This document shows positions 14,532 through 38,095 of a stretch of 64,000 bases of DNA, piece by piece; the first letter of the stretch is position 1, and the number at the start of each line of letters is the position of its first letter. The notes beneath the pieces were generated by a model. It ran no database searches. It worked only from the letters and a program-made list of their open reading frames with translations, and was not told the origin of the DNA. The DNA is from Verrucomicrobiota bacterium. GTDB taxonomy: Bacteria; Verrucomicrobiota; Lentisphaeria; JABSQK01; JAJFLO01. Made by a program: the position numbers and the translations under genes. The stretch lies in assembly GCA_021772615.1 (NCBI GenBank), contig JAJFLQ010000134.1, positions 2,039 to 66,038 of the forward strand, read 5' to 3'.

Positions 14532-14558
14532 ATTTCTATCTCCATACACCCATGGCAC

Positions 14559-21427: not shown

Positions 21428-22615
21428 TCAAGCAGGGTCGTCCTCGACCGCCGGTCGAAGCCAGATGCGGAATGTGGCGCCACCGCTCCGAATCAATTCC
21501 ATGCGACCGCATAATTTATGTGCCACCAGGTCAGAAACAATTTGTAATCCCAGTGTCTTGGTATTCCCCGGCACGACGTGTTCAGGAATCCCGACACCGT
21601 TATCGCGGATCTCAAGCAACAGCTCGTCCTTCTCGGTCGGAACCAGCTGTACGTGGATGTCGCCCGAACGTTGATCCGGAAATCCGTATGTCAATGAATT
21701 GGTAACAATTTCATTGATGATCATTCCGCAGGAAATGGCAGCCCCAAGATCGATCAGTACGTCGGCGATATCCGTGGTCAGCCCGACACGCCGCGGGTCA
21801 ATGGAGTAGGATTTATACAGATCCTGTATGAGGTCCTCGACATAACTCTTGAAATTCACGTGCGAAAGATCATCCGACTGATACAGCTTCTCGTGAATCA
21901 GTGCCATTGACTTCACGCGATTTTCGCATTCGGTAAATATAGATTGGTCGTGGGTGTCAGTGATCCCGTTGCGCTGAATACGGAGAAGGCTGATAATGAT
22001 CTGTAAATTGTTTTTTACACGATGGTGGATTTCTCGAAGCAACGCTTCCTTTTCCCGCAATGCCTTCTTGATATGCACCTCGGCCACACGGCGCTCGTCT
22101 ACTTCGGCGGCGAGACGGCCGTTGATTTGCTGAATTTCCGCCGTCCGCGTATTCACCAGGTCTTCGAGCTGGTCCTGGTGCAACCGCATCTGTTCTTCGG
22201 CATGTTTGCGTTCCGTGATATCGCGAAGAATCCCGGAGAAACACGTTTCATTGCCGACCTTCCACACGGCAAGCGACAGTTCCACCGGAATCTCTTCGCC
22301 GGACTTGTGCAGTCCGCGCAGCTCCGTCGTCCTGCCGATGAGCTTGGCCTCACCGGAACGCAACATACGTTCGAGCCCGGCCTTATGCGCCTCGCGGAAG
22401 CGCTCGGGGATGATAATGGTCAACGGGCGACCAAGTGCCTCATCCTCGTGATACCCGAACATCCTGCAGGCGCACTGGTTCCAGAAGGTGATGTTGCCGT
22501 TGCTGTCGGCAGCGATGATCGCGTCGTTGGCGGACTGTGCCACCGCACGAAAGCGCTCCTCACTCTGGGCCGCGAAGATGTCGCGCGACGATGCGGGTTG
22601 GTCATGACTGTCCAT
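21428..22615 (-). CDS. PAS-domain sensor histidine kinase (HisKA_2-type dimerization/H-box)
   Basis: PAS: ITFWNQCACRMFGY..GRPL; H-box EIHHRVKNNLQIIISLLRIQ; HATPase: IRDNGVGIP...GLGLQIV. Confidence 0.8.
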   Translation of the reverse strand: MDSHDQPASSRDIFAAQSEERFRAVAQSANDAIIAADSNGNITFWNQCACRMFGYHEDEALGRPLTIIIPERFREAHKAGLERMLRSGEAKLIGRTTELRGLHKSGEEIPVELSLAVWKVGNETCFSGILRDITERKHAEEQMRLHQDQLEDLVNTRTAEIQQINGRLAAEVDERRVAEVHIKKALREKEALLREIHHRVKNNLQIIISLLRIQRNGITDTHDQSIFTECENRVKSMALIHEKLYQSDDLSHVNFKSYVEDLIQDLYKSYSIDPRRVGLTTDIADVLIDLGAAISCGMIINEIVTNSLTYGFPDQRSGDIHVQLVPTEKDELLLEIRDNGVGIPEHVVPGNTKTLGLQIVSDLVAHKLCGRMELIRSGGATFRIWLRPAVEDDPA

Positions 22616-25349
22616 TGACGTCCTCTGTCGCCTCCGCGGCAGCCGCGGCCAATTGCTGATGGATCATGTGAATGAGCAGAAAAAGTATACCGTGCACAAT
22701 CGTGAGAATCGAAAACAGGCCCGGTGGTTTCAGCGTTTTGCCAAGAATTGCAAACGTGATCACCGCAGCAACGCACCACGACAGGCTGAGGCCGAATGCC
22801 GTTGGCTTGCGCCAGTCGCCGTGAGCGCGCCAGAAGTCGATGCCGCACCATAGCAGACCGACGACCGTTCCCTTCATGAGACCGCCGTTCAGAAAAGAAT
22901 TGCCGAGAACCAAGCCGATTGCGCCGCCGAAGATAGTGAAAACAGCGTAGGAAAATGGCGAGATGATTAGTAGTAGACAATAGATCAAAACGAGCTTGCT
23001 CGGCAGAACATCGCTGCTATTCTCGAATTTTTTGAGGAATCTGCGGTTCTTGATACGCCACGCCACGGCGACGAATCCTACAAACTGCAGACTGATCGGG
23101 ATAAGAAACTTGGCCAGTAACGGAAGATCTTTGGCAAAATCTTTCCAGTCCATGACCAGTGTTCGGATGGTGCTGATACCGGTAAATCCCCAGAGAACAA
23201 AGAGGACGATGAGCGTGCGCAAGATCAACTGGTTTCGTTTCTTTGTGACAAACCCGCGATGGCGATCGATGTAGGCACTCGCGTACTGACGCTGTTGCGG
23301 AGCGCAGAGGTCCTGTGGTACCGCCAGGAAATGCCGCCACGCCTCTCGGGCCTGAGCAAACTTACGGTGCTTTTCAAGATCCAGCCCGGCATTGTAACGC
23401 GTGGTCGTTTCTTTCTTGATCCGTTTCTTCTGCGCTTCGATCTTGTTGGCGGACATAATCTCGGTTTTCTGTGCCAAATCCATGGTCCGCTGCAGGTCTT
23501 CCCACTTATTATCTTCGATCCAGACCTTGAACACCTCGTCGATCTTGCTGCTCAGCGATGTATGCAGATCACTGACCTGCTTGTCAAAGTCGGTGTCGGC
23601 AGGCGACGGGTGCACCGTTGTCAATCTCTCGGACGTGCGATAGCCGACCAGCTTCTTGTAAGACTTGATTGCCTCCGCAAAATTCGCATTGCCCAGTTGC
23701 ACCTTCAGCAGTCGCAGGGTGTTGTTTCGGTCCTGCAGCATCTCGTGGCACTTCGCCTTGGCTGCATCAAGGCGGTCGTCGCCATCGGGCCCAACTGATC
23801 GCCATTGTTCTGCGGCGTTAAGCATATCCATACACTGCGAAAGACAATTTACCGACATCGCCATGCTGGCCTGAAAAATCGCCTCGCCAAGATCCTTGTT
23901 TATTACCTCCAGCTCTTCGTTCGCCAGCGAGTACTTCTCGCGGCCGAACGCTGCAATCAGCGTCTCGACCGCTTCGATCGCCCGATCGAGATGCAATTCC
24001 TGCCGCGCAGTATCGAGTCGTTGTTCCATGGCAATCCGAAATTTCTCCAGCAGGTCCTGGAGGCGTTTCGGCAATCTATCGTTCGAGAATGTGCGTGCGA
24101 ACTCGTTACACTTTTCCACGATCTCCATGGCGGCGGTGATGTCCTGCCTGTGCACCGCGTCCTCCAGCTGATCGGACAACGCGTCATTCTCACGAAACAT
24201 GATACGCTTCTTTTCGAGTACATCGCCGCCGCAGTGTGAGCAAAAACCCGCGCCAATAAGCAAATCGCCGTTGCAGATCGGACACGCTTCGTAGCCTGAT
24301 ACCCCGCAGCCGACGCATTTCTTATCTGCAATGGTGTTGGTGCGGCCGCAAGCACAGTCCCAACTGTCTGGTTCGTCCTCGGTGGAGGAAATGCCGGCGA
24401 CCGCAATTCCCGTGGCCTTGGTTATCGCGATGTTCAGCTCCCGCCCTGACTGATAACGGTCGTCGGGATTTTTCGCCATCAAACGATTGATAATCAGGCA
24501 AACGCCCTCGGAGATGTCCGGATTGATCTCATTCGGCATCGGCGGTTCAGCCTCCAGATGCCGCGTCGCTATCTCAATCGGTGAATTGCCCGTGAACGGA
24601 AATTCGCCGGTTACGATGTGAAATAATGTCGCGCCCAGACTATAAAGATCGCTACGATTGTCAAGCGGGTTTCCCAGCAGTGTCTCCGGGCATATGTAAT
24701 ACGGCGTGCCCATGATGACGTCCTCATCGGCAGAGTCGTCGGTCATATCGCTGGTGAGTTGCGCCAGCCCGAGGTCGGCAAGTTTGGCGATGCCGTCGAT
24801 GGTCATCATGATGTTGTCCGGCTTGATGTCGCGATGCACCATCTTTTGCTTATTCCAGGCGAAATCCAACGCATCTGCGATCTGGATGATGATTTCCAGC
24901 GCGAGTTCACAGGGCATCTTTTTCTGTTTTGCCAGAATCTCCTGTATCGATTTTCCTTCCACGAATTCCATCGCGAAAAAGTGGAAGCCATTTTCTTCGC
25001 CGACAGCATAAGCCTGGACAATATTGGTGTGGTTAAGCTTGGCTGCAGCCCGCGCTTCCTTTACAAAATTCGTCACGTAACTCTGATGGCGGGAGAATTT
25101 GTCCATCAGAATCTTGAGCGCCACGTCGCGATCGAGGGTGACCTGATGCGCCAGATAGACCGTACCCATGCCGCCTTTTGCGATCTCATGCTTGATCACG
25201 AAATCATTGATCACGACACGAGGCGCCAGTAGCGCGCCCGGAACGTACGTGTTCCGTCCACAATGACTACAGCGTATTTCCCGCGTAAATTCGGATTCGG
25301 GATCGGTGGATACGAGCGTACCGTCGCAATTTGCGCAGAGAAACTTCAC
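22602..25349 (-). CDS. Ser/Thr protein kinase with N-terminal and internal zinc ribbons, coiled-coil region and C-terminal polytopic membrane domain
   Basis: CANCDG..CSHCG; kinase subdomains GGMGTVYLA, VALKIL, HRDIKPDNIMM, DLGLA, GTPYYICPE; CACGRT..CVGCG..CPICNG..CSHCGG; ~6 C-terminal TM helices. Confidence 0.85.
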   Translation of the reverse strand: MKFLCANCDGTLVSTDPESEFTREIRCSHCGRNTYVPGALLAPRVVINDFVIKHEIAKGGMGTVYLAHQVTLDRDVALKILMDKFSRHQSYVTNFVKEARAAAKLNHTNIVQAYAVGEENGFHFFAMEFVEGKSIQEILAKQKKMPCELALEIIIQIADALDFAWNKQKMVHRDIKPDNIMMTIDGIAKLADLGLAQLTSDMTDDSADEDVIMGTPYYICPETLLGNPLDNRSDLYSLGATLFHIVTGEFPFTGNSPIEIATRHLEAEPPMPNEINPDISEGVCLIINRLMAKNPDDRYQSGRELNIAITKATGIAVAGISSTEDEPDSWDCACGRTNTIADKKCVGCGVSGYEACPICNGDLLIGAGFCSHCGGDVLEKKRIMFRENDALSDQLEDAVHRQDITAAMEIVEKCNEFARTFSNDRLPKRLQDLLEKFRIAMEQRLDTARQELHLDRAIEAVETLIAAFGREKYSLANEELEVINKDLGEAIFQASMAMSVNCLSQCMDMLNAAEQWRSVGPDGDDRLDAAKAKCHEMLQDRNNTLRLLKVQLGNANFAEAIKSYKKLVGYRTSERLTTVHPSPADTDFDKQVSDLHTSLSSKIDEVFKVWIEDNKWEDLQRTMDLAQKTEIMSANKIEAQKKRIKKETTTRYNAGLDLEKHRKFAQAREAWRHFLAVPQDLCAPQQRQYASAYIDRHRGFVTKKRNQLILRTLIVLFVLWGFTGISTIRTLVMDWKDFAKDLPLLAKFLIPISLQFVGFVAVAWRIKNRRFLKKFENSSDVLPSKLVLIYCLLLIISPFSYAVFTIFGGAIGLVLGNSFLNGGLMKGTVVGLLWCGIDFWRAHGDWRKPTAFGLSLSWCVAAVITFAILGKTLKPPGLFSILTIVHGILFLLIHMIHQQLAAAAAEATEDVNGQS

Positions 25350-25613
25350 GGATTGAGGCCCTCAGGGTAGAAAAGGCGAAACAGGAATGTGTTGTGATGC
25401 AATCGAAGCAGTGAGCCGGGCACACTGCATTACCAGACAACATACGCAATCCGCGGCGGGAATTCAATCAGCCGGAACAAAGTTCTGGCGCTCTCACGTC
25501 GGCGCTTTCACACTGCGGTAGAACGACCGCCGCACCGACCGTGAACCATGTTGCCGCCACGCCGACAATACCGTCCGCAGCTCACGAAGTTCGCCCCGAC
25601 TCCGGCGATTTTA

Positions 25614-25856
<243 letters not shown>

Positions 25857-25979
25857 TCATCCACGCAACATGGGTATTTAACCCAAGGTTTGAGGGGGAA
25901 TGTACCGATCGAGTCTTCCTCGCAGTCGATTTGCCCATCGCTCACCGAGCCGCCGATAGCTCGCCTCAACGTTCTTGAG

Positions 25980-27506
25980 ATGATCATTCGGGCAGCGGCA
26001 GCCGCAGCGTTGCCGCTGGCCATAGTTGCTGTGTGTCGATTCACATCCATCCCGCCACAAAGCGAAAACGCCTTCGACAGCTTTTACCATGTCGCCATGG
26101 CCGACGGATTTCCGGCACGGTGCCTGAGTCGTACGTTTCCGTATACCACCATGTCTATATGGGAACAGCATTTCTATGATAAGGAATTGTTGTTCCACGC
26201 CGGTATCGCTGCAGTGCGCTCCCTGTCCCGTGCGATCGGCATGTCCGCCGCCCCGCCATTCCATCTTCCCGCACTCGCCTTCGTCGGCGCCTTTTTCTGG
26301 GTGTTCAATCTCGTATCGATACGCCGCAGGCTGCCTCTAACGATCGTATGGACAGCCTTGCTGGTGATCCTGTCGCCGGCGCTGTTCGATCGCCTCGGTG
26401 TCCTGAGACCACACCTGCTTGGCATGACCATGATGGTTGCCGGCAGCCACATTCTCGCGTCGATCAGCCGCTCCACGCAGCTCTGGCAGGCGGCAGCTCT
26501 CGGATATGTGATGGTTTTTTCGTATTCACAACCCCACTTTGTGCTGATCCCCGCCATCATAGCAGCACTCCACTGGGCCGCCGCGCATCGCACACGGTTC
26601 GGTGTGCAGATCGTCATGCTCACAGTCTTCGGGCTAGTGGCGGGGATGATCATCCATCCACAATTTCCCAACACCGTGATGTTGTGGAAAATCCAATGTG
26701 TTGACGTCGTCGCCGGCATTATCAGCGGAGAAACCACCGTCGCCCTTGGACAAGAGCTCGCCGCACCGTCACCGGGGTGGCTGATGCAGAACGGTTTGGT
26801 TTTTATACTGGCTGTGCTAAATTTCGTGCTGATGTATCAAACCGGGGGATATCGGATATTGTACCGATGCTCCCGCGACACCGTGATTTTCACGGGCACC
26901 CAGGCGGTGTTTACTGCCGGGCTTTTTTTGTCAATGCGATGCATCGAATATGCGGCGCCGTTCGGCATTTTGGCACTTGGTGCGATCGTTCGTGACCGGC
27001 TGACGAAGATGGCAGTAAGGAGTCCGCGTACCACAAAAATCCAACGTCGGATGGTCGCGAGCGGCGTTGTCGTCGCATTGGCGATCGCGGCAACGTATTA
27101 TACATCGAGTCATTACCGCCGGGGAGCGGTGACTATCGGGTCCTTTGGCAACTGGGCGGGGCAAAACATTCCGCCGGGAACCAAGATCGCCAATCCGTAC
27201 TGGTCAGATTTTCCGATGCTGTTCTATTCGGGTGTAAGGTATCGATATTCCTGGGGCCTCGATCCGATGTTCGGGTACCGCCGGGATCCGGAAGCAGCCT
27301 CGAAAATGGCCTTGTTCGCCAACGGGAAGTGGACGCCGTCGGTTGACGAGATGAGACACGTTACAGGCGCACGATATATGTTCATTTCGAGCTACGGAAA
27401 ACCGCGTGTTGACGCCCTGCCCTGGGCTGGAGCGCGGTGCGTTTATCACGGAAGTGACGGCTGGCTGTTTGATCTCCGGGACGACAACCAGAAATCGGAC
27501 CGATGA
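25980..27506 (+). CDS. polytopic integral membrane protein of unknown function (possibly glycosyltransferase-like)
   Basis: ORF 25548..27506 trimmed to first ATG clear of the tRNA; >=10 predicted TM helices; soluble C-terminal ~120 aa. Confidence 0.45.
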   Translation: MIIRAAAAAALPLAIVAVCRFTSIPPQSENAFDSFYHVAMADGFPARCLSRTFPYTTMSIWEQHFYDKELLFHAGIAAVRSLSRAIGMSAAPPFHLPALAFVGAFFWVFNLVSIRRRLPLTIVWTALLVILSPALFDRLGVLRPHLLGMTMMVAGSHILASISRSTQLWQAAALGYVMVFSYSQPHFVLIPAIIAALHWAAAHRTRFGVQIVMLTVFGLVAGMIIHPQFPNTVMLWKIQCVDVVAGIISGETTVALGQELAAPSPGWLMQNGLVFILAVLNFVLMYQTGGYRILYRCSRDTVIFTGTQAVFTAGLFLSMRCIEYAAPFGILALGAIVRDRLTKMAVRSPRTTKIQRRMVASGVVVALAIAATYYTSSHYRRGAVTIGSFGNWAGQNIPPGTKIANPYWSDFPMLFYSGVRYRYSWGLDPMFGYRRDPEAASKMALFANGKWTPSVDEMRHVTGARYMFISSYGKPRVDALPWAGARCVYHGSDGWLFDLRDDNQKSDR

Positions 27507-27510
27507 TGCG

Positions 27511-29655
27511 ATGAGCAACGAATCACAAGCACCGCCAATCGATCCCATGTTCGGAGCGGGTATCCCTTCGTCGCCGAAACTGGGGCCGATTCTGGTCGTC
27601 CCGCAACTACTATTCCTCAGCGATTATCTCGTGTGCACGGACGTGATTTCGCAAGAATACGATTCCGATCTGGCCCGTTCCATGCCCGACAAGTCGAGTC
27701 TCGGCCTCTCTCCTGCAGAAATCTCGGATTACCTGGAAACCCCCGCGTACGCAACATCGCCCTCCCCTTCCGGTTCGCCGTCGTTTTCCCGCGGCCGCGG
27801 GAAATTATCGAAAGCAATGGCGCAGAAGAAGGCAGCGGTTACGCTGGGGGTCGCTCAAGCACTCTACGATACGGCGCCACATTTATTTGCCACCGACTGG
27901 GACGGTGACTTTGTGCGGCTGATCATTGATGAAGCCAACCGCGCTCAAGTTGTAGACAACATTTCGGTGCTGGATCACGTACATCCACGTATGACCGTAC
28001 CGGCACGACGGGACATACCGGCCAAGTCGACGTTGAAGGACTTCGAATGGCAGCAGTGGCTGCTGGAGGGTATACGCCGTGAACGTTTCCGTACATTAAT
28101 TCAGCTCGATGCCGATGCTGCCCATTTCAAACGAATCCAGAAGCTGCTGCACGAGCGGTTGTGGCAGAACGCGATGTTTCAACAGTTTCTGAATCGCTGG
28201 CTCTTCCCCAACGATTTCAAGGAAATGCTTCGCGAGTTGACCATTTCACAACCGCATGAGTTTATCAGCCGTTTCTGGGCCGAATACTACGCACCATCAT
28301 TGAATCCCGATGGTGTCGTTATTCATAGCGGCGGAGGACTTTTCAGGCGGTTGCTGCATGCCGTCACCGTAAGGCGCTATGCATCCGCACTCAGGAAAAC
28401 GCGCACCGCTGTACGGGAAACCGTGTTGTCGATTGAACCAGGCGGCAGCATTTTCGCCTTTCTTGACGATCATTTCGCCCAGGCCGGCGACGTTGCAGAG
28501 AAGGACATCCTGGCCATTCGGGGCCACCATCGTGCGGCGATCGCGCTGGGTCTATCTCCTATCGATACCGACGACCTGGCGCACTCCGCTGCGACCGAGA
28601 CAGCCGTATTCGCCGCTGTTCTCGATTCCAACGATCCCAAATACGCCGATGATTCGGACGATCCCGAAGAGATGGCGACACAGGACGGGCTGCTTCCGGT
28701 CGACGAGCCGGAGGACGGGATGGACACGCAGGATCCGTTTGTGCTGGACGACGCTGATGCCGACGACCTCGACTTCGATGCGGTACCGACGATGATGGAC
28801 AGCAACACCGTGCCGCTCGAGCCGGCTACAGCGCCTGTCGCTGTGGAAAAAGCACCGGCACCCCCAACCAATCCCTACCGGCAAGTAAAGGAACATGCCA
28901 TACACCTGCTCGGCGACGATGTAGAACATATCAGGATGGCCGATCTCACCAGAATCAAGGTCGGATCGTTCGTTCAGTTCCATATCAACTACAAAGATTT
29001 TTACTACACGCTGGAGAAGGTCTCGGAACGTACGTTTCGAATGTGGTCAAAGAAGTCCGACTGCGCGCAATCCGGCCGTCCTTCGGAGTTGATAGAGTTC
29101 GACGACAGCGGCACGTTGGCCATAGGCCAGTCACTGACACTGGCGAAACCCGAGCCGGATCGCGAATTGGAGCAGGATCGTTGGCCTACCAACGGTATTC
29201 CTCCTTTTGTCACGATGATCCGCTGTTTTTCCAAGGATGTCCTGAAGAACGCACGACGCAAGTCCGCGCCGGTCGATAAGTTAGCAAAGCAGCCGCGCCT
29301 GTTTTTTCTCTCCAAGCAAATGTGTCGATTTGCGATCGACGGAACCGGGCTCACCGTGGGCACGCTCGACAGGGTTTGGCATTTCAGTGACGTAACCGAA
29401 GGCAAGCGCATTCTGCTCGGCCGAATGCCAAATAACGATATCCACCTCAAAGGTGTCGGCGGCATATCCAGACGCCACTGCGCGATCGTGCCGGAAGGCG
29501 GCCAGTGGTTTCTCGCTGACCTGGATTCAACAAACGGCTGCTTCTACGCCGGTCAGCAACTCAAATCCGGCACCAAGAACAAGCGCAACTGGATAAAACT
29601 TCCCGAAGGCTCCCGCCAGCAGGATAACAAAATCGTCGGCAAACGCATGACGTAA
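27511..29655 (+). CDS. FHA-domain protein with long acidic/low-complexity N-terminal region
   Basis: C-terminal FHA: ILLGRMPNNDIHLKGVGGISRRHCAIVPEGGQWFLADLDSTNGCFYAG; acidic tract DDSDDPEEMATQDGLLPVDEPEDGMDTQDPFVLDDADADDLDFD; start MSNESQ 5 nt after upstream stop. Confidence 0.75.
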   Translation: MSNESQAPPIDPMFGAGIPSSPKLGPILVVPQLLFLSDYLVCTDVISQEYDSDLARSMPDKSSLGLSPAEISDYLETPAYATSPSPSGSPSFSRGRGKLSKAMAQKKAAVTLGVAQALYDTAPHLFATDWDGDFVRLIIDEANRAQVVDNISVLDHVHPRMTVPARRDIPAKSTLKDFEWQQWLLEGIRRERFRTLIQLDADAAHFKRIQKLLHERLWQNAMFQQFLNRWLFPNDFKEMLRELTISQPHEFISRFWAEYYAPSLNPDGVVIHSGGGLFRRLLHAVTVRRYASALRKTRTAVRETVLSIEPGGSIFAFLDDHFAQAGDVAEKDILAIRGHHRAAIALGLSPIDTDDLAHSAATETAVFAAVLDSNDPKYADDSDDPEEMATQDGLLPVDEPEDGMDTQDPFVLDDADADDLDFDAVPTMMDSNTVPLEPATAPVAVEKAPAPPTNPYRQVKEHAIHLLGDDVEHIRMADLTRIKVGSFVQFHINYKDFYYTLEKVSERTFRMWSKKSDCAQSGRPSELIEFDDSGTLAIGQSLTLAKPEPDRELEQDRWPTNGIPPFVTMIRCFSKDVLKNARRKSAPVDKLAKQPRLFFLSKQMCRFAIDGTGLTVGTLDRVWHFSDVTEGKRILLGRMPNNDIHLKGVGGISRRHCAIVPEGGQWFLADLDSTNGCFYAGQQLKSGTKNKRNWIKLPEGSRQQDNKIVGKRMT

Positions 29656-29680
29656 CGCGAGGCCGGATTCGGCAATTGCC

Positions 29681-29938
29681 ATGACCTTCGTATTCTTGAC
29701 CGTGCTTGTGGGTATCGTCGGCGGCGTTGTATGGGCTGTCGACCGATTCTCTGAAGACCGTCCCCGCGTGACGACTCTGCTTATCGGATCGATTCTCTTT
29801 TTCGCGGCTGTGATTGTCGCGAAAGAAGCCAGATATGCTCCACGGTTTCTGGCGATGATAGTCAGTAGCGTGCAGGTCAGCGGACTGGTTTTGTGTATTG
29901 TCGGTGTCGTCCGCTTACTGCGGAAGCCGGAAGATTGA
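29681..29938 (+). CDS. small (85 aa) three-helix membrane protein
   Basis: MTFVFLTVLVGIVGGVVWAV...LLIGSILFFAAVIVA...MIVSSVQVSGLVLCIVGVV; weak RBS. Confidence 0.3.
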   Translation: MTFVFLTVLVGIVGGVVWAVDRFSEDRPRVTTLLIGSILFFAAVIVAKEARYAPRFLAMIVSSVQVSGLVLCIVGVVRLLRKPED

Positions 29939-30035
29939 CGCGGCAGCTCCGGCCGAAACGTGCCGATCGGGAAAATCTCCACATCGCAATACCAACATCT
30001 CGAAATTGATTCAAGACCAAGGGTGCGTGGCGTCA

Positions 30036-33000
30036 ATGGCCGTCAAAACATTAAAGATGCGGATTCTTATCAGCCTGGTTTCGGCCTTGCTTCCCGCAAC
30101 AGTGTTCGCGCAATCGTTCACCGGTGAGCGACATGTGACGGATGCCGTGACCGACGGCGCCCGACCGTGTTACATCGTTGGCGCCGATGTCGAGGTGACC
30201 TTGTCGCTGACATTCGATGTTCCGGGCGGCAACGTCGGAGTATGGGGCATTAGCGAACGGATTCCGGCCGGTTGGGCCTTTGTCTCCGCAAACAACAATG
30301 GGGAGTACGACGCTCCAGGCAAGCGGGTTAGCGGGACGGCAACGGGAAATCCACCGCCTGAAGTGAGCTATATCCTGACACCGACATCCGTTGGGGACAC
30401 GACGTTTTCCACCATAGAAATGGGCTTGTTCGCCGGGATGCTCATCACCGGCACAATGGATGACACGATTCTACCGGAATGTGCTGACGACGACGTTGCG
30501 CCCGAGTCGTCCGTAATAACCAGCGGCATCCACGGCCCGCAGACGTGGAGCGGCGTCATACATGGGACGGCATCGGACGACACCAGTGGCGTCGCCTCGG
30601 TGATAGTGACCATCCAGCGTCTGTCAGACGGGCGGTCGTGGAACGGGGAGTTATGGACAGTCGGATTTTTCTCGCGCCCCGTGAGTCGTGGTACGACGAC
30701 ATGGGAGTACGACTTGCCCCTGGCTGCGCTTGAAGAGGCTGGATCCGGCGTTGGCTACGTGGTGGTGAGCCGTGCAACGGACGCTGTCGGAAACGTGCAA
30801 AACGAGCCAGGTTCGAATACCTTTAGTTTTGACTCCGCGCCGCCGACAGGTGTGTATTTCATTGGGTCAGGCGACCCCACCTATACAACGTTGCTGAACG
30901 TCACTCTCGACGTCGTCGTCGCCGGCGCCACCGAGATGCGATTTCGCAACGTATCGGGGATGTTTCCCGAGTCGTGGACAAGCATTGCCGGCACATTCGA
31001 TTTTCCGCTCGACGGAGGAGATGGCACAACAACAGTTTTTGCAGAGTTTCGCGATGCGGCGCTGAACGTGCTGGAATTGAGTGACGATATCATAGTCGAC
31101 ACCACACCACCGATGTCAGCAGTATCGACGTCTGGTGTTTTTGGCCCCGCGACGTGGCCGGGCTCGATCGCCGGTTCCGCCTCCGACAATGTGAGCGGCG
31201 TGTCAAATGTTCATCTTCGACTACACCGCAGCGACGATGATATGTATTGGAACGGAGCTGCGTGGGGCAGTGATTCAACCACCTTCATTTCGGCATCCGG
31301 CGATACAACGTGGTCATCAATCATCCCTGTTGCCGCCTTGTCCGACGGTCACAGTTACGCCGTCGACAGTCGTGCACTCGATGCGGCCGGCAACGCCGAG
31401 AGCAACCTGGGCAATGGATTCTTTCAATTCGACGCGTCGGCACCGGTTGGTTCCTTCTCTATCGGAATGGGCGATCCGCCATTCGTGATCTCGCCGAATG
31501 TAACGTTGGCCGTAGCCGTGAGCGGTGCGACAGAAATGAGATTTCGCAACGCATCGGGGATTTTTCCGGAGTCGTGGTCAAGTGTTGCCGCACCTTTCGG
31601 TTTTGCGCTCGACGGCGGAGACGGCATGAAAACAGTGTTCGCCGAGTTTCGGGATACAGCGCGAAACGTGCTGGCACTCACCGACGATGTCGTACTCGAC
31701 GCGACGGATCCGATCTCGACCGTGTTGACGGCGGGAACAGTTGGTCCCAACACCTGGTCGGGCCCGATTGCGACAGTCGGGGGAACGGCGTCGGACTCGA
31801 CCAGTGGTGTGGACCAGGTAACCGTGACGATCCAACGTCTTGCCGACGGACGGTCATGGGACGGCGATACCTGGCAGTTCGGATTCTTCCCGCTGGGTGT
31901 CAGCCGCGGGACGACAGAGTGGGAATACGATTTGCCGTTTACAGCCTTAGCGGAAGCAGGAAATGGTGTCGGCTACGTAGTCGTCAGCCGCGCGACGGAT
32001 GTCGCCGGAAACGAGCAATCGGAGCCGGGTTCAAATTCGTTTACCTTCGACTCCGAGCCGCCCACGGGCCTGTTTACCATCGGGACAGGCGACCCGTCCT
32101 ACACCACCTCTCCAGAGGTCACGCTGGGCGTTGCCGTCACCGGCGCCACCGAGATGCGATTTCGCAACGCCTCGGGAAACTTTCCGGAGGCGTGGACAAG
32201 CGTTGCCGGCACGCTCGACTTTGCACTTGCTCAGGGAGACGGTACGAAAACGGTATTCGCCCAATTCCGCGATGCGGCACTGAACGTGCTGGCGGTCAGC
32301 GACAGTATCGTCCTCGACGCGACGATGCCGGTATCGGCAGTTTCGACATCTGGTGCATTCGGACCCAGTACATGGCCTGACTCCATTGTGACTACGGCGT
32401 CGGATAATCTGAGCGGCATTTCCGCTGTTCACATTCGGCTGCAGCGATCAAGCGATGATAGATATTGGAACGGCAGTGAATGGGGCGATGAATCGGAGAC
32501 ATTTCTGGCTGCCTCGGGTGACGGCGTCTGGTCGTTGTCCGTTTCTGCCGGCGCACTGACGAACGGCGTCAACTATGGGGTAAACAGCCGCGCAACCGAC
32601 CTTGCCGGCAATATCGAGGCGGATTTTGGGAGCAGCACATTCCAGTACGACGCATCACCGCCGGCCGGTGCCTTTTTTATTGTCGACGACATGACTGTCT
32701 ACACCAATACGCCGACCGTTGTACTCAATAATAGGATAACCGGCGCAGACGAAATGCGTATCCGTAACGCCGGTGCCGCATTTCCCAATGTCTGGTTAAT
32801 TTTTGATTCGGCTCCTGTGTGGCTCCTGGACACAACCGCAGACGATGGCGCACAAATGGTTGAAATCGAATTCCGCGATTTTGCCGGCAATGTGTTGCAC
32901 CTGTCTGATACGATTATTCTCGATCGCGTCGATCCTGATACGTCATTGCAGCCACCGGACGTGTTCGGCCCACTTACGTGGCCTGGCGAAATTACGGGGT

Positions 33001-34214
33001 CGGCAACAGAGCAGACGTCCGGCGTCGCTGCAGTCGACGTGCGGTTGCGCAATGACGATGACGGCACCTTCTGGAACGGCGCTTCCTGGCAGCAAAACGA
33101 GATCTGGATCGCGGCGACAGCGGATCTTCCCGCATGGTCCTTATCCGTATCCAGCGCGGCGCTTACACATGACACGACGTACTCGGTGAGCGCACGGGCG
33201 AATGACGCTGCCGGTAACGTTGACAACACACCGGCGACATCGTCATTTTCCTACGACGCCGTCGCGCCGGATATTGCCGTTGTCGAGGTATTGATCAACG
33301 TGCCGTTCGATAGTGGTTCGGTCGACATTGCCGCAGGCGTAGCGGCAACAGACGCCCATCTGGGAGTGATATCGACTCCGGACGTGCACGTTTCACCTGA
33401 TGCGATTGACAGTACTATCATCGGCGAAACACGTATTAGCTACAGCGCAGCAGACGCAGCGGGTAATACATCGAATGCATTTCGTGATTATCGCGTCGGC
33501 TTTCAAATTTCCGGAAATATCACATATGACAAGGCGACGGCGTCCACGCCGCTGATTGACGTTACTTCTCATGGCCAGGAAACCGATAGCATCGACGCGT
33601 CTGTTGCCGGCAACGGACCGTGGACATTTACATTGTTCATCGTCGGTGAGTCCGGAACATACGACCTGGCAGCGGTACTTGACACATCAGCCGACGGCGA
33701 GCCCGATGCCGAAGAGCCGGGCGACCGGTATGCCAACCGCAATGTGACCATTACGGACAATCTTGCGGACATCAATTTTCACGTCGCAGAATGGGAAGAT
33801 CTTGTGAGCTACGACGCCGGATGGAATTTCGTTGCGTTTCCGGGCCAACCGTTTTTCTCGGCTCCACATCAATTGATCGCAGGTGCACGGCCGGAATTAT
33901 GGGAAATCGATAACAGCAACAGTGGTTACCGACCGGCTTCGGAATTTTCTGCACTAAGCGGCCAATGGGTTTACCTCGACGTTCCTGCCCGCAATGTGCT
34001 TGTGCGCGGCAACTACCTGCCAGATTCGACTCAGACCATACCTGCCGGATGGCGGGCGATCGGCGTCAGGAACAGTCTGGTAAAACCTAATCTTCTGGGC
34101 CCGGTTTGGGAGTGGCGTGCGAATCGCTATCTTCTCGTCCCTCCGGGGAGTACGCTTCAGCGGTATTGTGGATATGTCGTTTTCGCCGCTGCGACAGTAA
34201 TATTCGTTTATTGA
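30036..34214 (+). CDS. giant secreted repeat protein (~1393 aa): signal peptide, 5 tandem ~200-aa repeats, HYR/Ig-like C-terminal region
   Basis: signal peptide MAVKTLKMRILISLVSALLPATVFAQS; repeated modules ..TxPPxSxVxTSGxFGPxTWxGxIxGxAxDxxSGVxxV..YWNG..SRAxDxAGNxE..FxFDxxPPxGxFxIGxGDP..NVTLxVxVxGATEMRFRNxSGxFPExW..GDGxKTVFAEFRDxAxNVL; C-terminal ..RISYSAADAAGNTSNAF. Confidence 0.8.
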   Translation: MAVKTLKMRILISLVSALLPATVFAQSFTGERHVTDAVTDGARPCYIVGADVEVTLSLTFDVPGGNVGVWGISERIPAGWAFVSANNNGEYDAPGKRVSGTATGNPPPEVSYILTPTSVGDTTFSTIEMGLFAGMLITGTMDDTILPECADDDVAPESSVITSGIHGPQTWSGVIHGTASDDTSGVASVIVTIQRLSDGRSWNGELWTVGFFSRPVSRGTTTWEYDLPLAALEEAGSGVGYVVVSRATDAVGNVQNEPGSNTFSFDSAPPTGVYFIGSGDPTYTTLLNVTLDVVVAGATEMRFRNVSGMFPESWTSIAGTFDFPLDGGDGTTTVFAEFRDAALNVLELSDDIIVDTTPPMSAVSTSGVFGPATWPGSIAGSASDNVSGVSNVHLRLHRSDDDMYWNGAAWGSDSTTFISASGDTTWSSIIPVAALSDGHSYAVDSRALDAAGNAESNLGNGFFQFDASAPVGSFSIGMGDPPFVISPNVTLAVAVSGATEMRFRNASGIFPESWSSVAAPFGFALDGGDGMKTVFAEFRDTARNVLALTDDVVLDATDPISTVLTAGTVGPNTWSGPIATVGGTASDSTSGVDQVTVTIQRLADGRSWDGDTWQFGFFPLGVSRGTTEWEYDLPFTALAEAGNGVGYVVVSRATDVAGNEQSEPGSNSFTFDSEPPTGLFTIGTGDPSYTTSPEVTLGVAVTGATEMRFRNASGNFPEAWTSVAGTLDFALAQGDGTKTVFAQFRDAALNVLAVSDSIVLDATMPVSAVSTSGAFGPSTWPDSIVTTASDNLSGISAVHIRLQRSSDDRYWNGSEWGDESETFLAASGDGVWSLSVSAGALTNGVNYGVNSRATDLAGNIEADFGSSTFQYDASPPAGAFFIVDDMTVYTNTPTVVLNNRITGADEMRIRNAGAAFPNVWLIFDSAPVWLLDTTADDGAQMVEIEFRDFAGNVLHLSDTIILDRVDPDTSLQPPDVFGPLTWPGEITGSATEQTSGVAAVDVRLRNDDDGTFWNGASWQQNEIWIAATADLPAWSLSVSSAALTHDTTYSVSARANDAAGNVDNTPATSSFSYDAVAPDIAVVEVLINVPFDSGSVDIAAGVAATDAHLGVISTPDVHVSPDAIDSTIIGETRISYSAADAAGNTSNAFRDYRVGFQISGNITYDKATASTPLIDVTSHGQETDSIDASVAGNGPWTFTLFIVGESGTYDLAAVLDTSADGEPDAEEPGDRYANRNVTITDNLADINFHVAEWEDLVSYDAGWNFVAFPGQPFFSAPHQLIAGARPELWEIDNSNSGYRPASEFSALSGQWVYLDVPARNVLVRGNYLPDSTQTIPAGWRAIGVRNSLVKPNLLGPVWEWRANRYLLVPPGSTLQRYCGYVVFAAATVIFVY
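30825..33300 (+). repeat. five intragenic tandem repeats, ~600-615 bp period, recognisable at nucleotide level
   Basis: recurring gagatgcgatttcgcaacg (30931, 31536, 32150; diverged at 32750) and FDSxPP junctions near 30825, 31425, 32042, 32640, 33245. Confidence 0.8.
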
Positions 34215-34267
34215 TTACAACTGCCGTCGGCATTGAGTTCCCCGGGACAATGCCATTGAATTAGGCA

Positions 34268-34307
34268 TTTTCGTTGGCATTCACATTCCCGGGAATGTGA
34301 ACGCTCC
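34268..34307 (+). repeat. dispersed repeat type X copy 1 with perfect 18-bp palindrome (cacattcccgggaatgtg), preceded by a second hairpin at 34230..34255
   Basis: ttttcgttggcattcacattcccgggaatgtgaacgctcc; related to 49112..49160. Confidence 0.55.
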
Positions 34308-34437
34308 GTTTGCGAGACGCCGAAAAGCCACATCAAAAGCCGTGAACAACGAAGTGCGTAAGATATTGCCGATTCACGCCGTGGATTATGTTTCGATGGT
34401 TGGCGAATACACGGAATGAAGGCCCGACAGGTATCGC

Positions 34438-35469
34438 ATGACACCACCACCGCCGATCGCCCCTCCGGTATCTGAGCAGGATGCCGACCACCGGTGTGTA
34501 CTGCACATTGGCTTGCCGAAAACCGGATCGAAGCTGCTTCAATGGCACCTGTTTGCGCGCCACAGCGAAGTCGATTTTCTTGGTCTGTATATCGGCGATG
34601 TTGCACGGCCCTACCAACAGTTCGGCAATTGCCGAACGGCTGCGGTTGAAAGCGTGATGCAGGAACTGCTGTGGAAAAACGTAGGCAATCCCGATATCGA
34701 ACGCTGCCGGGAGATTATTAAGGCATCGATCCTTCCGGCATTTGACAACGGAAAGATCCCTGTCTGGTCGTGGGAGTCACTCGCCACGGACAATCTCAAG
34801 GTTCGGCGAATGCGGGCCAGGAATCTATACAACGCCTTTGGTTCGTGCAAGATCATTGCTGCGGTCCGACATCCGTTTGACCTTCTCGAGTCCGCGTATT
34901 TCCAGATGCTGAAACGAGAAAATCTCTCCGTGCCTTTTCGTCGCCTTGACGGCGGCCGAGCCGCATACTGCATCGGAATTAAAAAATGGCTGGAAGATCA
35001 CTTTGGCGACGTCGTTATGGAGCATCTTGACTATGCCAAAACGATCAACATCTATAGCGAACTTTTCGGCAAAAACGCCGTGGCCGTCTTTCTTTACGAA
35101 GATTTGCGGGAAAATACGCCCGTGCATATAGAGAATGTGTGCCGTTTCATCGGCATCAATGCAGCCGAGGGCGTGACCTTAACCGATGGAAAGCAGGTGA
35201 ATTTACGATGGACTCAAAAGCAATTTGAAAATTTGAAACACATTCAGGCTTCGATGCTCAGGTCCCTGCTATTTCGGTTCACCTACAACACAAAACGACA
35301 TCGGGTTCTCGGATTCAGGTCGAACCCGGGACTGCGCGTTGGCCCCCCGGCTCGCGTCGCGATTCCCAAGGTATGGAAACGAAAAATCAGCGATGTAACC
35401 CGAAACGGGAATCGGTGGCTGGAGCAGGAATGGGGACTGCCGCTTCAGCGCTACGGCTATCCACTCTAG
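34438..35469 (+). CDS. sulfotransferase-family protein (intact PAPS-binding motifs)
   Basis: 5'-PSB-like HIGLPKTGSKLLQ; 3'-PB-like VRHPFDLLESAYFQ (RxPxDxxxSxY). Confidence 0.7.
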   Translation: MTPPPPIAPPVSEQDADHRCVLHIGLPKTGSKLLQWHLFARHSEVDFLGLYIGDVARPYQQFGNCRTAAVESVMQELLWKNVGNPDIERCREIIKASILPAFDNGKIPVWSWESLATDNLKVRRMRARNLYNAFGSCKIIAAVRHPFDLLESAYFQMLKRENLSVPFRRLDGGRAAYCIGIKKWLEDHFGDVVMEHLDYAKTINIYSELFGKNAVAVFLYEDLRENTPVHIENVCRFIGINAAEGVTLTDGKQVNLRWTQKQFENLKHIQASMLRSLLFRFTYNTKRHRVLGFRSNPGLRVGPPARVAIPKVWKRKISDVTRNGNRWLEQEWGLPLQRYGYPL

Positions 35470-35713
35470 AGGATTTCGAGCAAGAAATTCCAATTCATAA
35501 GCATCAAATGGCAAATAAACCACAATCTCGAATTAGCGAAATTGGCGATTCTGGAAAAAGTTTAAAGGAGGACTTGTCGGGACTCAGAAGTTTTCGTGTG
35601 AGCCGGCTCCGAATCATTTTTCGACAGTCTTCTGCAAACACGATCGACCTTATCTCGGTTGGCCCGAGAGCCAGGATATATGAAGAAACATATCAAATCA
35701 TACGCAAGCGGCG

Positions 35714-36757
35714 TTGAATCACCATCCGATGATCACCGATCGCAACATGGAGCCGGGCATCAGCTTTGCAGCGGAAGACAAACGCACCGGCGGCGGCGAC
35801 AACTGCGCCTGTATTCACATTGGCCTGCCCGGCGCCGACGCCCGTCTCCTGCAGGCGCATCTGTTCCCGACTCACAGTGAGGTATACTATCTTGGCCGCC
35901 ATGCTAACGAGGACTGTTTGTGGCGGAACCGTACCGTTCAGCAATTCGTCGCGGAGCTGCAGCGCCCGGGAATATCCCGTACCGAACTGTCGTCTTGTCG
36001 GGAGCTCGCAAACGAACTTATTACCACTGCATCCACTTCACTGCAACAATTGGTATTCTCATGGGAACGCCTGAGTACGGGCACGCGGGACAATCGATCT
36101 GCATGGCCGGAGTTGCTGCAGTCTATATTCGGAAATTGTAAGATTCTTGTTGTGCTCATGCACCCGGTCGCATTGATTGAATCCGCCTACTTCCGAATGT
36201 TGACGCGGCAATATGTCGGCGCCAATGCCCGCTGCGGGCGACTCGCCGATTTCGAAACCATCGAGGACTGGATTTCTCGGACTAATATCCTGCAACGCAA
36301 CGATGGATTGTTGGATTACCAGGAAACGGTGGCATCCTATGCCATTCTTTTTGGCAACGATGCCGTCAACGTCTTCCCCGCCGAAGCGATGGAAGAGCAA
36401 CGGGATTCTTATACACGGACGTTGTGCCGCTTTATCGGCATAGGCGCTGACGAAGACGTTACAGCATGTGAGCAATTTGAAGGTGCAAAACATCGCTGGA
36501 CATCGGCACAGGTCGAACGTTTGCAGAATGTTCAGCGCAACTTCTGGCAAGCTCTCAGATTTCGATTCGCGGACCGACGGATGCGCCGCATTCTTCTGGG
36601 CATGCACAAGGGGGATCCTGCTTTTGCAGCGCCGCCGGCCCGTGCGGCCATCTCCGACCGACATCGTGAGATCATCCAAGACCGAACACGAGAAGGCAAC
36701 CGATGGATTGCAGAGACGTGGCACGTACCGCTCGAAGAATATGGTTATCCACTGTAG
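35714..36757 (+). CDS. sulfotransferase paralog with degenerate PAPS-binding motifs (likely non-catalytic)
   Basis: same overall architecture as 34438..35469 (C-terminal ..NRWxxxxWxxPLxxYGYPL shared) but HIGLPGADARLLQ and MHPVALIESAYF replace the PKTGS and RxPxD motifs. Confidence 0.6.
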   Translation: MNHHPMITDRNMEPGISFAAEDKRTGGGDNCACIHIGLPGADARLLQAHLFPTHSEVYYLGRHANEDCLWRNRTVQQFVAELQRPGISRTELSSCRELANELITTASTSLQQLVFSWERLSTGTRDNRSAWPELLQSIFGNCKILVVLMHPVALIESAYFRMLTRQYVGANARCGRLADFETIEDWISRTNILQRNDGLLDYQETVASYAILFGNDAVNVFPAEAMEEQRDSYTRTLCRFIGIGADEDVTACEQFEGAKHRWTSAQVERLQNVQRNFWQALRFRFADRRMRRILLGMHKGDPAFAAPPARAAISDRHREIIQDRTREGNRWIAETWHVPLEEYGYPL

Positions 36758-36952
36758 CCACCCGTAGTTCAAAAAGGCCTGCAATATAGCGCACTGCAAC
36801 GCGTGATCGGTGCAGCATCCGGGACAGACGACTCAGCCCCCCCCGCATGGCGGCGGTTTAGGCTACTTTGTAGCTGTGAATCCAGCGTTTCGGAGACCTT
36901 TTCGAAAGGGCTGGCGAATGCGAACGATAGCAAGAAACAGAAGGGGTTGACA

Positions 36953-38095
36953 ATGCGAGGCGTCAAGTATATCGGCCCGGTTTTTGATGGAAGCGGGTAC
37001 GCGGAAGCGGCGCGGAACAACGTGCTCGCAATGGCGAGACAGGGATGTCCAGTGACGCTGGCACCGGTATCGTTTGACAGTATTCGGCCGGACCTGGGCG
37101 AGAACGGTGCGGTCTTGCGTCGCCTCGTCGACAAAGACATCCCCTACGACATCGTTATTATTCATTGCACCCCGGACATCTGGCGATTTTACGCCCAACA
37201 CGAAACAGATAAATACGTCATTGGTTGCACGATTTGGGAAACTACACGGCTGCATCCGGTATGGACAGCGGCATGCAACCGGATGCATGAAGTATGGGTG
37301 CCGACCCGCTGGAATAGTGATGTGTTCAGGGCATCCGGCGTCACGGTGCCATTGTACGACATTCCGTATTGCATGGACGTACCTGATGCAAATACGATAG
37401 AAACGATGCAAATACCTGGGGTGTCGGGCGATGACTTCGTATTTTATGCCATCTTTCAATGGCAGGAACGCAAGAATCCGCTCGGCCTGATCGCGACGTA
37501 CCTATCGGCTTTCACGGGAAACCGGAAGGTCGCCCTGGTTCTGAAATCTTACCTGAGCGACTATGAAACCGATCAGGACGCTATAAAAAAAATTATTAAT
37601 GCATTCAAGGCAGAGATGAATCTCGCGCACTATCCTAAAATCATCGTGTTGTCTGAAAATTTCAGCCGACACGAGCTGCTTTCTCTGCATCGGCGAGGCG
37701 ACTGTTTTGCGCTGCTGCAACGTTCGGAAGGCTGGGGCCTTCCGCATTTCGAGGCGGCAGCCTGCGGAAATCCCGTCGTGACGCCCCGATACGGCGCGCA
37801 GACAGAATTCCTAAACGATCACAACGCCTACCTGGTCGATTATTCGCTGCGGCCCGTGACCGGCATGTCGTGGTCGCCATATTATACCTCGACACAACTG
37901 TGGTGTGAACCCGACCAGGAACATGCAATGACCCTGCTGCGGTACGTGTATGAAAATCGTGATGAGGCCAATGCAAAAGGTCGTCTGGCAAGAGCTTTTG
38001 TTGAACAGCATTTCACCCCGGAACACGTGGGACAACGCATCGAGTCGCGATTGAACGCCATTCAACTCCCATTCCCGGATGTCGACGGCAATTGA
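36953..38095 (+). CDS. GT4-family (group 1) glycosyltransferase
   Basis: ORF 36803..38095 trimmed to ATG with AAGGGG RBS; C-terminal E..E motif region SEGWGLPHFEAAACGNPVVTPRYG. Confidence 0.8.
   Translation: MRGVKYIGPVFDGSGYAEAARNNVLAMARQGCPVTLAPVSFDSIRPDLGENGAVLRRLVDKDIPYDIVIIHCTPDIWRFYAQHETDKYVIGCTIWETTRLHPVWTAACNRMHEVWVPTRWNSDVFRASGVTVPLYDIPYCMDVPDANTIETMQIPGVSGDDFVFYAIFQWQERKNPLGLIATYLSAFTGNRKVALVLKSYLSDYETDQDAIKKIINAFKAEMNLAHYPKIIVLSENFSRHELLSLHRRGDCFALLQRSEGWGLPHFEAAACGNPVVTPRYGAQTEFLNDHNAYLVDYSLRPVTGMSWSPYYTSTQLWCEPDQEHAMTLLRYVYENRDEANAKGRLARAFVEQHFTPEHVGQRIESRLNAIQLPFPDVDGN

Follow-up and report, generated by a model that had tools for sequence, protein, structure and literature searches.

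A predicted extracellular stalk protein of alternating Ig-like domains, closed by an undescribed and internally duplicated terminal domain, in a Verrucomicrobiota-like bacterium

The extenders of the giant adhesins, such as SiiE of Salmonella, MpIBP/MpAFP (region II) of Marinomonas, the repeats-in-toxin (RTX) adhesins of Aeromonas, and the LapA-type proteins, are rods of tandem immunoglobulin-like (Ig-like) sandwiches of about 90-115 amino acids (aa) each; strong acidity is typical of extenders that are stiffened by Ca2+. Other secreted proteins are retained non-covalently on an envelope polymer by C-terminal modules, among them the GW modules of Listeria InlB and Ami, the SLH domains, and the choline-binding repeats. 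In type IX secretion system (T9SS) cargo, for example RgpB of Porphyromonas gingivalis, a signal peptide, a passenger, and an Ig-like domain are followed by a conserved all-beta C-terminal domain (CTD), which is a seven-strand Ig-like sandwich of about 80 aa (PMC4804311). Here we describe a gene at 30036..34214 (forward strand) in a 64,000-nucleotide stretch of contig JAJFLQ010000134.1 from a Verrucomicrobiota bacterium (assembly GCA_021772615.1); we refer to the whole stretch as the window and to the gene product as the stalk protein. Like the giant adhesins, the stalk protein has a rod of tandem Ig-like sandwiches, and like T9SS cargo it has a signal peptide, a passenger, an Ig-like domain, and a conserved all-beta domain at its C-terminus.

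Our favored reading, which we hold with slightly better than even confidence, is that the stalk protein is an acidic, rod-shaped extracellular or surface protein, exported by the general secretory (Sec) pathway of a diderm bacterium of the Planctomycetes-Verrucomicrobia-Chlamydiae (PVC) superphylum: an adhesin-like stalk with a terminal binding module. The signal peptide would carry the protein across the inner membrane; nine Ig-like sandwiches of two alternating, distantly related types would, as modeled, form a long spacer rod; and the rod would hold an orphan N-terminal domain (the N-domain) apart from a C-terminal cassette made of the domains H, M, and the terminal domain (C). The terminal domain, a tandem duplicate of a beta unit of about 65 aa, would act as a binding module, as opposed to an export signal that is cleaved off, and would most likely hold the rod on a component of the envelope or matrix; a role as a ligand-binding tip seems less likely.

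The gene and its repeat array

The gene starts at ATG 30036 and ends with the stop codon at 34212-34214; the long open reading frame (ORF) reaches back to TTG 29898, and ATG 30036 lies in frame within it. An independent gene call in the Logan assembly of SRR15505516 has the same start and gives a 1392-aa protein identical to that of the NCBI contig. The protein is absent from the GTDB species representatives, which were searched for it, and no close orthologue was found, the best other homologue being 40% identical. The gene and its parts are as follows (all on the forward strand).

30036..34214, +, stalk-protein gene, 1392 aa plus stop; product very acidic, with 19% Ser+Thr and 3 Cys
30036..30113, +, predicted Sec signal peptide of the signal peptidase I (SPase I) type, aa 1-26 (sequence features and hydropathy)
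30114..30491, +, N-terminal orphan domain, aa 27-152, the presumed distal "head", without a sequence match in Pfam, NCBIfam, or PDB
30492..30839, +, A1, Ig-like domain of type A, aa 153-268 (motifs and alignments)
30840..31109, +, B1, Ig-like domain of type B, aa 269-358 (GATEMRFRN...GDGxxTVFAEFRD motifs)
30922..30951, +, 30-nt exact repeat, copy 1, in the GATEMRFRN motif of B1 (exact-match scan)
31110..31439, +, A2, aa 359-468 (weak Big_13 / Big_3_2 matches)
31440..31709, +, B2, aa 469-558 (motifs and alignments)
31710..32327, +, A3+B3, aa 559-764 (A3 559-674, B3 675-764), the modeled module
32140..32169, +, 30-nt exact repeat, copy 2, in B3, 1218 nt downstream of copy 1
32328..32657, +, A4, aa 765-874 (alignment)
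32658..32933, +, B4, aa 875-966, which has diverged furthest among the B copies, being about 40% identical to the others (alignment)
32934..33263, +, A5, aa 967-1076, without a B partner and with the best Big_13 match (alignment, Pfam)
33264..33491, +, H, HYR-like / Bact_surface_Ig-like domain, aa 1077-1152, sub-threshold (Pfam; cassette kept in the homologue P0042)
33492..33800, +, M, domain of about 105-110 aa before the terminal domain, aa 1153 to about 1255 (homologues in P0042, P0055, and P0070)
33801..34211, +, terminal domain, aa 1256-1392, two homologous halves of about 65 aa, all-beta (HMMER and AlphaFold2 [AF2])

At the N-terminus, a basic n-region is followed by a hydrophobic core (Kyte-Doolittle [KD] hydropathy 2.0-2.9 over 10-12 residues); after the ATG start the sequence reads MAVKTLKMRILISLVSALLPATVFA and then QSF, the predicted mature N-terminus, with the putative cleavage at the small-residue site VFA-Q. 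Since the signal region contains no Cys, there is no lipobox and the protein is not a lipoprotein. Beyond the signal peptide, no transmembrane (TM)-like stretch was found across the whole protein (no 19-aa window with KD>1.6). These features suggest export of the stalk protein via Sec. The product is strongly acidic, with 167 D+E against 60 K+R (only 7 of them Lys) and a net charge of about -107.

A preliminary description of the gene, made from its letters alone, had presented it as a giant secreted protein of repeated modules with two sub-domains each, and the predicted signal peptide and the domain map agree with this. The number of modules differs: where five had been counted, the order A1B1A2B2A3B3A4B4A5 comprises nine Ig-like domains of two alternating types, i.e., 4.5 modules, with four complete A+B modules of 206, 200, 206, and 202 aa and then a lone fifth A. 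The motifs quoted at that stage are present in the protein. The five A domains (110-116 aa) carry "SGV..V.V" and "SRAxDxAGN", and the four B domains (90-92 aa) carry "GATEMRFRN" and "GDGxKTVFAEFRD". B is distantly akin to A across the C-terminal strands (hhalign E 4.7e-5).

With the Pfam model Big_13, the whole protein scores 42.3 bits (cut-off 27), which places it in the BIg class; single domains score 17.8-20.1 bits, below the same cut-off, and Pfam has no match for the B, N, and M domains or the tail. NCBIfam gave sub-threshold or borderline matches to the Ca_tandemer, MXAN_2561, and OmpL47-type models (for Ca_tandemer, NF033510, 32.1 bits, short of the cut-off of 50). The fold is predicted with confidence: the AF2 model of A3+B3, built on a 32-sequence alignment, has a predicted local distance difference test (pLDDT) score of 96.7 and a predicted template modeling (pTM) score of 0.83, and consists of two consecutive beta-sandwiches. 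Foldseek found 103 matches to this model in PDB at E<=1e-3, all of them tandem Ig/FN3-like; the top match is to the BIg domains of the giant adhesin SiiE of Salmonella (2yn3/2yn5, TM score 0.61), followed by extenders of RTX adhesins (6xi1, 4p99), GhpA (a grappling-hook protein), RbmA, and titin. The sequence profile of the module, in turn, matches the tetra-tandemer of MpAFP region II at 1.1e-13 and the RTX adhesin 5irb at 2e-5. Taken together, the fold and profile matches indicate that the repeat array is an Ig rod of the extender type.

The domains that flank the array are harder to place. The C-terminal segment that had been called HYR/Ig-like (our domain H) has two matches, both below threshold: one to Bact_surface_Ig-like (18.4 bits, cut-off 27, E 0.002) and one to HYR (PF02494, 14.6 bits against a cut-off of 21.7, E 0.044); H is an Ig-like segment of uncertain subfamily. 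M has no family match in Pfam or NCBIfam. In a first pass the N-domain resembles, weakly and with 22.5 bits in total, the GEVED-containing repeats of P0067, a 1907-aa protein that is itself a carrier of the terminal domain. The strong jackhmmer values for this pair are a product of iteration, and the Pfam GEVED model misses the window protein, so we set the match aside as a weak lead.

Self-comparison of the gene bears out its periodicity, with a peak far above background at a spacing twice that first described. Ungapped protein self-identity reaches 43% at an offset of 406 aa (background 7.6 +/- 2.2%), and nucleotide self-identity reaches 52% at 1218 nt (background 25.7 +/- 1.9%). The period of about 200 aa, or about 605 bp, given in the preliminary description is present as a weaker signal (19-23% protein identity at offsets of 200, 206, and 608 aa, and 35-36% nucleotide identity at 600 and 618 nt), and it is not the dominant one: the main repeating unit spans two modules, giving the super-repeat A1B1A2B2 / A3B3A4B4 with a period of 406 aa or 1218 nt. 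A1 and A3 share 69% identity, and A2 and A4 59%, as compared with about 40-44% between neighboring A domains (44% for A1 and A2); it follows that the most recent duplication was of a 406-aa block containing two modules.

The "DNA-level repeat identity" once ascribed to these repeats is overstated. Tandem Repeats Finder reported 0 arrays over 29000-35500; blastn self-matches within the gene are 70-74% identical; and codon-aligned repeats share 47-73% of their nucleotides, with synonymous divergence (dS) from 0.95 to saturation and nonsynonymous divergence (dN) from 0.20 to 0.64. The longest exact intragenic repeat is the 30-nt one listed above, which lies within the most conserved peptide motif. 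A 19-mer that had been said to recur every 605 bp or so is exact at 30933 and 32151 only, with a third copy at two mismatches. With DNA identities of 47-74% and saturation at synonymous sites, the repeats are ancient and not homogenized; they show no sign of concerted evolution, and the one identical tract, of 30 nt, offers homologous recombination very little to act on. The suggestion that the array could expand and contract by recombination, and so switch its repeat number, is thus not supported by these values. The repeats would rather be ancient duplications that were kept for length and rigidity than a variable-number device.

The terminal domain and its carriers

The preliminary description saw no sortase, PEP-CTERM, or T9SS tail, and in this it was right: PF18962/TIGR04183 and TIGR04131 have no match in the whole protein or the isolated tail (Pfam and NCBIfam, E<=5), the C-terminus has no TM segment, and the tripartite anchor of short motif, hydrophobic helix, and basic tail (as in sortase LPXTG and PEP-CTERM proteins) is absent from it. 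The further statement that, for want of such a tail, the anchoring is unclear is not supported, since the last 135 aa or so form a conserved, well-folded domain that is common to dozens of secreted proteins and that the preliminary description had not recognized. The family surfaced only when 1.84 billion representatives were searched exhaustively by HMMER (phmmer) with the C-terminal 137 aa as query; the C-terminal 240 aa drew no match in a k-mer search for homologues. The exhaustive search returned 39 representatives at E<=1e-3, i.e., the window protein and 38 others (E 4e-12 to 1e-3).

The position of the domain is nearly constant. In 28 out of 30 representatives that we examined (proteins of 155-3072 aa), it ends 0-14 aa from the C-terminus (0 aa in the window protein); the two exceptions are P0053 and P0063, in which it directly follows the signal peptide, and in P0053 it is followed downstream by TSP3 and Calx-beta domains. 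A signal-peptide-like N-terminus is present in 17 of the 24 members that look full-length. The carriers include surface proteins of the Ig, cadherin, HYR, Calx-beta, VWA, and CHB_HEX_C types. In P0059 (2070 aa) the domain is attached to Peptidase_C25 and Peptidase_M14, in P0106 (269 aa) a genuine T9SS type-A tail stands behind it, and it also occurs in proteins of about 150-250 aa that hold little else. Some of the records that contain it are named Woesearchaeota and Pacearchaeota.

An alignment of 29 members of the family (alignment A2) shows two similar halves, each with the pattern L..GWNL[IV]S.P ... W.W...Y ... GYWVY ... v.G; W14, W62, and Y131 are invariant, and the G/W/N columns nearly so. 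The window copy departs from the pattern in having GWR for the second GWN and GQW / GYV for GYW. The two halves, of about 65 aa each, are homologous (hhalign E 4.5e-18). None of the 29 members matches a Pfam or NCBIfam model at E<=1 (the GW, SLH, and CW_binding families included) or has a sequence match in PDB, and a literature search with the motif strings of the domain returned nothing relevant. The "GWN...GYW" double-half domain is thus undescribed in Pfam, NCBIfam, and PDB.

The AF2 model of the terminal domain (pLDDT 94.5, pTM 0.87) has 14 strands in about 135 aa, and Foldseek found no neighbor for it in PDB at E<=1e-3 (best E 0.1, TM score <=0.26) or in BFVD. The hydrophobic end of the protein, ...ATVIFVY, is the last beta-strand of the model (model residues 139-142; pLDDT of the segment about 89-95). 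We also considered the terminal ...FVY as a possible beta-signal of outer membrane proteins, and rejected it because other members of the family lack an aromatic last residue.

Relatives and gene neighborhood

Only four proteins, P0002, P0003, P0005, and P0007 (uncharacterized metagenomic proteins of 1538-2199 aa), were found to alternate A and B domains. They share 36-42% identity with the window protein over 36-65% of the query, and their tails are the same terminal domain (hhalign probability 95.6%, E 1.2e-8, with the family profile); when the window tail alone was compared with their tails, hhalign gave no significant match, and the link emerged only with the family profile. They differ from the stalk protein in having a cohesin-like N-terminal domain, to which the N-domain of the stalk protein is unrelated, in carrying further kinds of repeat after their A-B array and before their tail, and in lacking the H+M cassette. 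Elsewhere the two types occur separately: 9-15 A domains stand in a row in P0006 (Anaerolineae) and P0004, and 11 B domains in P0010, so that A and B are independent evolutionary units. The C-terminal cassette has relatives of its own: P0042 has all of H+M+C in common with the stalk protein (32% identity over 312 aa, 2e-39), and P0055 and P0070 have M+C.

A metagenome scan with the M+C cassette gave six loci. In every locus that was fetched for a relative with the terminal domain (P0002, P0003, P0070/P0080, and P0057), there is a gene for a conserved protein of about 240 aa just upstream; in L088 it is the next but one upstream, with a second cohesin-like ORF in between. The protein is made up of a TM anchor at the N-terminus, a linker, and a weakly cohesin-like domain of about 150 aa (35-39% mutual identity); with the Pfam Cohesin model, the related 177-aa ORF in L088 gives E 0.005 and the L084 protein E 0.2, and the other two give no match. 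DUF1573 and TPR genes lie near it. The cohesin-like protein may be a partner or anchor for the terminal-domain proteins. The genes in question are as follows.

L083:3-533, candidate cohesin-like partner gene
L084:3044-3793, candidate cohesin-like partner gene
L087:5749-6465, candidate cohesin-like partner gene
L088:3433-4173, candidate cohesin-like partner gene
L089:57-770, also a candidate cohesin-like partner gene

The window has no counterpart of the putative cohesin-like partner or of the DUF1573 and TPR neighbors. Its own genes around the stalk-protein gene include the following.

22602-25349, -, Ser/Thr protein kinase
27406-29655, +, FHA-domain protein, with the FHA domain C-terminal and about 650 unassigned residues before it
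29681-29938, +, 85-aa membrane protein
34438-35469, +, sulfotransferase (context only)
35714-36757, +, sulfotransferase paralogue, no Pfam match
36803-38095, +, GT4 glycosyltransferase (context only)

The kinase, FHA, and 85-aa genes lie directly upstream of the stalk-protein gene; the last two are on its strand, with gaps of 25 and 97 nt, and may form an operon with it. Downstream, the two sulfotransferase genes share an N-terminal IHIGLP..... and a C-terminal ...NRW..E.W..PL..YGYPL, and because of this paralogy the cluster contains two sulfotransferase-like genes. In the Kiritimatiellales, sulfotransferases of PF13469 inside clusters of GT2 and GT4 glycosyltransferases have been read as synthesizing a sulfated, glycosaminoglycan-like exopolymer (PMC7356697); by analogy, synthesis of a sulfated exopolysaccharide is the default reading of the cluster in the window. 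None of these genes (FHA, 85-aa TM protein, sulfotransferases, GT4s, and kinase) recurs at the fetched loci of the relatives. Because the window neighbors are absent beside the relatives, we do not adopt a link between the stalk protein and the glycan cluster; such a link is possible but unsupported.

The LepA encoded in the window is 68% identical to that of a metagenome-assembled genome of the Victivallales and 61-65% identical to those of Verrucomicrobiota, and by sequence the host is a member of the PVC superphylum, Lentisphaerota- or Verrucomicrobiota-like. A TonB-dependent receptor is also encoded in the window, hence the host is diderm. The genes dnaA, lepA, and that for a 450-aa signal peptidase I homologue are located at 13164-14558, 18784-20637, and 17418-18770, respectively (all on the reverse strand); cumulative GC skew declines over most of the window and does not clearly turn near dnaA.

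Several other observations concern genes farther from the main subject. A tRNA-Arg(CCG) at 25761-25837 (forward strand) lies within the 5′ part of the mechanically called ORF 25548-27506 (652 aa), so the real start of this gene must be downstream; the protein it encodes crosses the membrane several times and matches nothing in Pfam at E<=1. A 1440-aa protein encoded at 54580-58902 (reverse strand) is an nSTAND1 NTPase fused to a long WD40 array, and a second nSTAND1 protein is encoded at 45813-47237 (reverse strand); both are STAND-type signaling or conflict-system proteins, unrelated to the stalk protein.

Proposed role, alternatives, and known systems

We favor a binding module as the role of the terminal domain because the domain also occurs N-terminally, before a T9SS tail, in archaeal records, and in nearly standalone proteins. 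Several points weigh against the reading as an adhesin-like stalk with such a module. The role of the terminal domain is purely conjectural, and its near-exclusive C-terminal position and the peptidase carrier P0059 would be expected of a sorting signal as well. The word "adhesin" is used by analogy, since the N-terminal domain has no assigned function. Cleavage of the signal peptide is a prediction from sequence, and we identified no secretion-system gene beside the stalk-protein gene. Because the putative partner gene is missing from the window, the window protein may be handled differently from its relatives. Finally, the structure search covered PDB and BFVD, and the modeled terminal domain may prove to be a remote version of a known fold (a lectin or jelly-roll-like sandwich).

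The strongest alternative, which we regard as unlikely though worth keeping in view, is that the stalk protein is a released scaffold of the matrix or biofilm, similar to RbmA, whose terminal domains cross-link the exopolysaccharide, perhaps a sulfated one, that the same cell produces with the neighboring cluster. RbmA is indeed among the fold matches of the module, the gene adjoins two sulfotransferase paralogues and GT4 genes, PVC relatives make sulfated glycosaminoglycan-like exopolymers from such clusters (PMC7356697), and the conserved Trp/Tyr positions of the terminal domain could be those of a sugar-binding module, in which such residues are often found. However, the neighborhood is unlike that of any relative examined, no carbohydrate-binding family gave a match (Pfam, NCBIfam, PDB), and a net charge of about -107 is ill-suited to the direct binding of a sulfated, polyanionic glycan in the absence of bridging cations.

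Somewhat less probable still is that the terminal domain is an export or sorting signal comparable to the T9SS CTD, recognized by a hypothetical translocon in the outer membrane and possibly cleaved, the cargo being joined covalently to a glycan at the surface. Such a signal would account for the domain lying 0-14 aa from the C-terminus in 28/30 representatives, for its attachment to diverse cargoes with signal peptides (including the C25 + M14 peptidase protein), and for its place after an Ig-like domain, as in the T9SS CTD (PMC4804311). It does not fit the N-terminal domains of P0053 and P0063, the genuine T9SS type-A tail that comes after the domain in P0106, or the occurrence in short, nearly standalone proteins and in DPANN-named archaeal records (from organisms with no outer membrane). 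In addition, the domain is larger than the T9SS CTD (135 aa and 14 strands against about 80 aa and 7 strands; PMC4804311), and the four related loci contain no conserved translocon-like neighbor.

The possibility that this is a contingency gene, with a module number that varies by recombination between near-identical repeats and a product that is sulfated or glycosylated by the adjacent enzymes (as the preliminary description envisaged), can be given hardly any weight: the 30-nt exact repeats 1218 nt apart would yield an in-frame deletion or duplication of 406 aa, the product is 19% Ser+Thr, and sulfotransferases and glycosyltransferases are adjacent, but identity among the repeats is 47-74%, dS runs from 0.95 up to saturation, concerted evolution is not seen, Tandem Repeats Finder reported nothing, two independent assemblies contain the identical protein, the best other homologue (40% identical) leaves no close orthologues to compare, and the neighborhood is not conserved.

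Returning to the stalk with a terminal binding module, the repeat array is its routine part, since large surface proteins with Ig repeats are common. The noteworthy part is the undescribed domain, modeled with confidence and duplicated internally, with which many secreted proteins of several domains end; some of these come from poorly known lineages (this PVC bacterium and the records named as DPANN archaea). Together with alignment A2 and the model, the domain, as a candidate module, provides a testable handle on the little-understood retention of Sec-exported proteins at the surface in such lineages; its definition would also improve the annotation of "hypothetical" proteins that carry it. 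A bolder proposal, which we consider doubtful, is that the domain is a module of new fold in Bacteria and DPANN Archaea that tethers Sec-exported stalks and enzymes non-covalently to a glycan of the envelope or matrix; in this host, that glycan might be the sulfated product of the adjacent sulfotransferase/glycosyltransferase cluster.

Among the known systems, the giant adhesins resemble the stalk protein in the rod and in the strong acidity of their Ca2+-stiffened extenders, and differ from it in secretion, repeats, and tail. They are substrates of type 1 secretion with C-terminal RTX repeats and no N-terminal signal peptide, whereas the stalk protein is of the Sec type and has no RTX/HemolysinCabind match in Pfam at E<=1; they contain tens of near-identical repeats, whereas the stalk protein has only nine, of two alternating types; and their terminal domain differs from the beta-rich one of the stalk protein. 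The Listeria GW modules, repeated and with a conserved Gly-Trp, offer a functional analogy only: they are SH3-like, and the terminal-domain model has no Foldseek match to any PDB entry. The T9SS CTD is a parallel in distribution, in that one domain is found on many unrelated passengers, including a C25 peptidase; the stalk terminal domain differs in its 14 strands, its length of 135 aa, and its internal duplication, and the hosts differ as well (Bacteroidota for T9SS cargo, PVC-like for the stalk protein). If the tethering proposal is true, the terminal domain would be a new class of surface-anchoring domain, to be placed beside the SLH domains, the GW modules, and the T9SS CTD.

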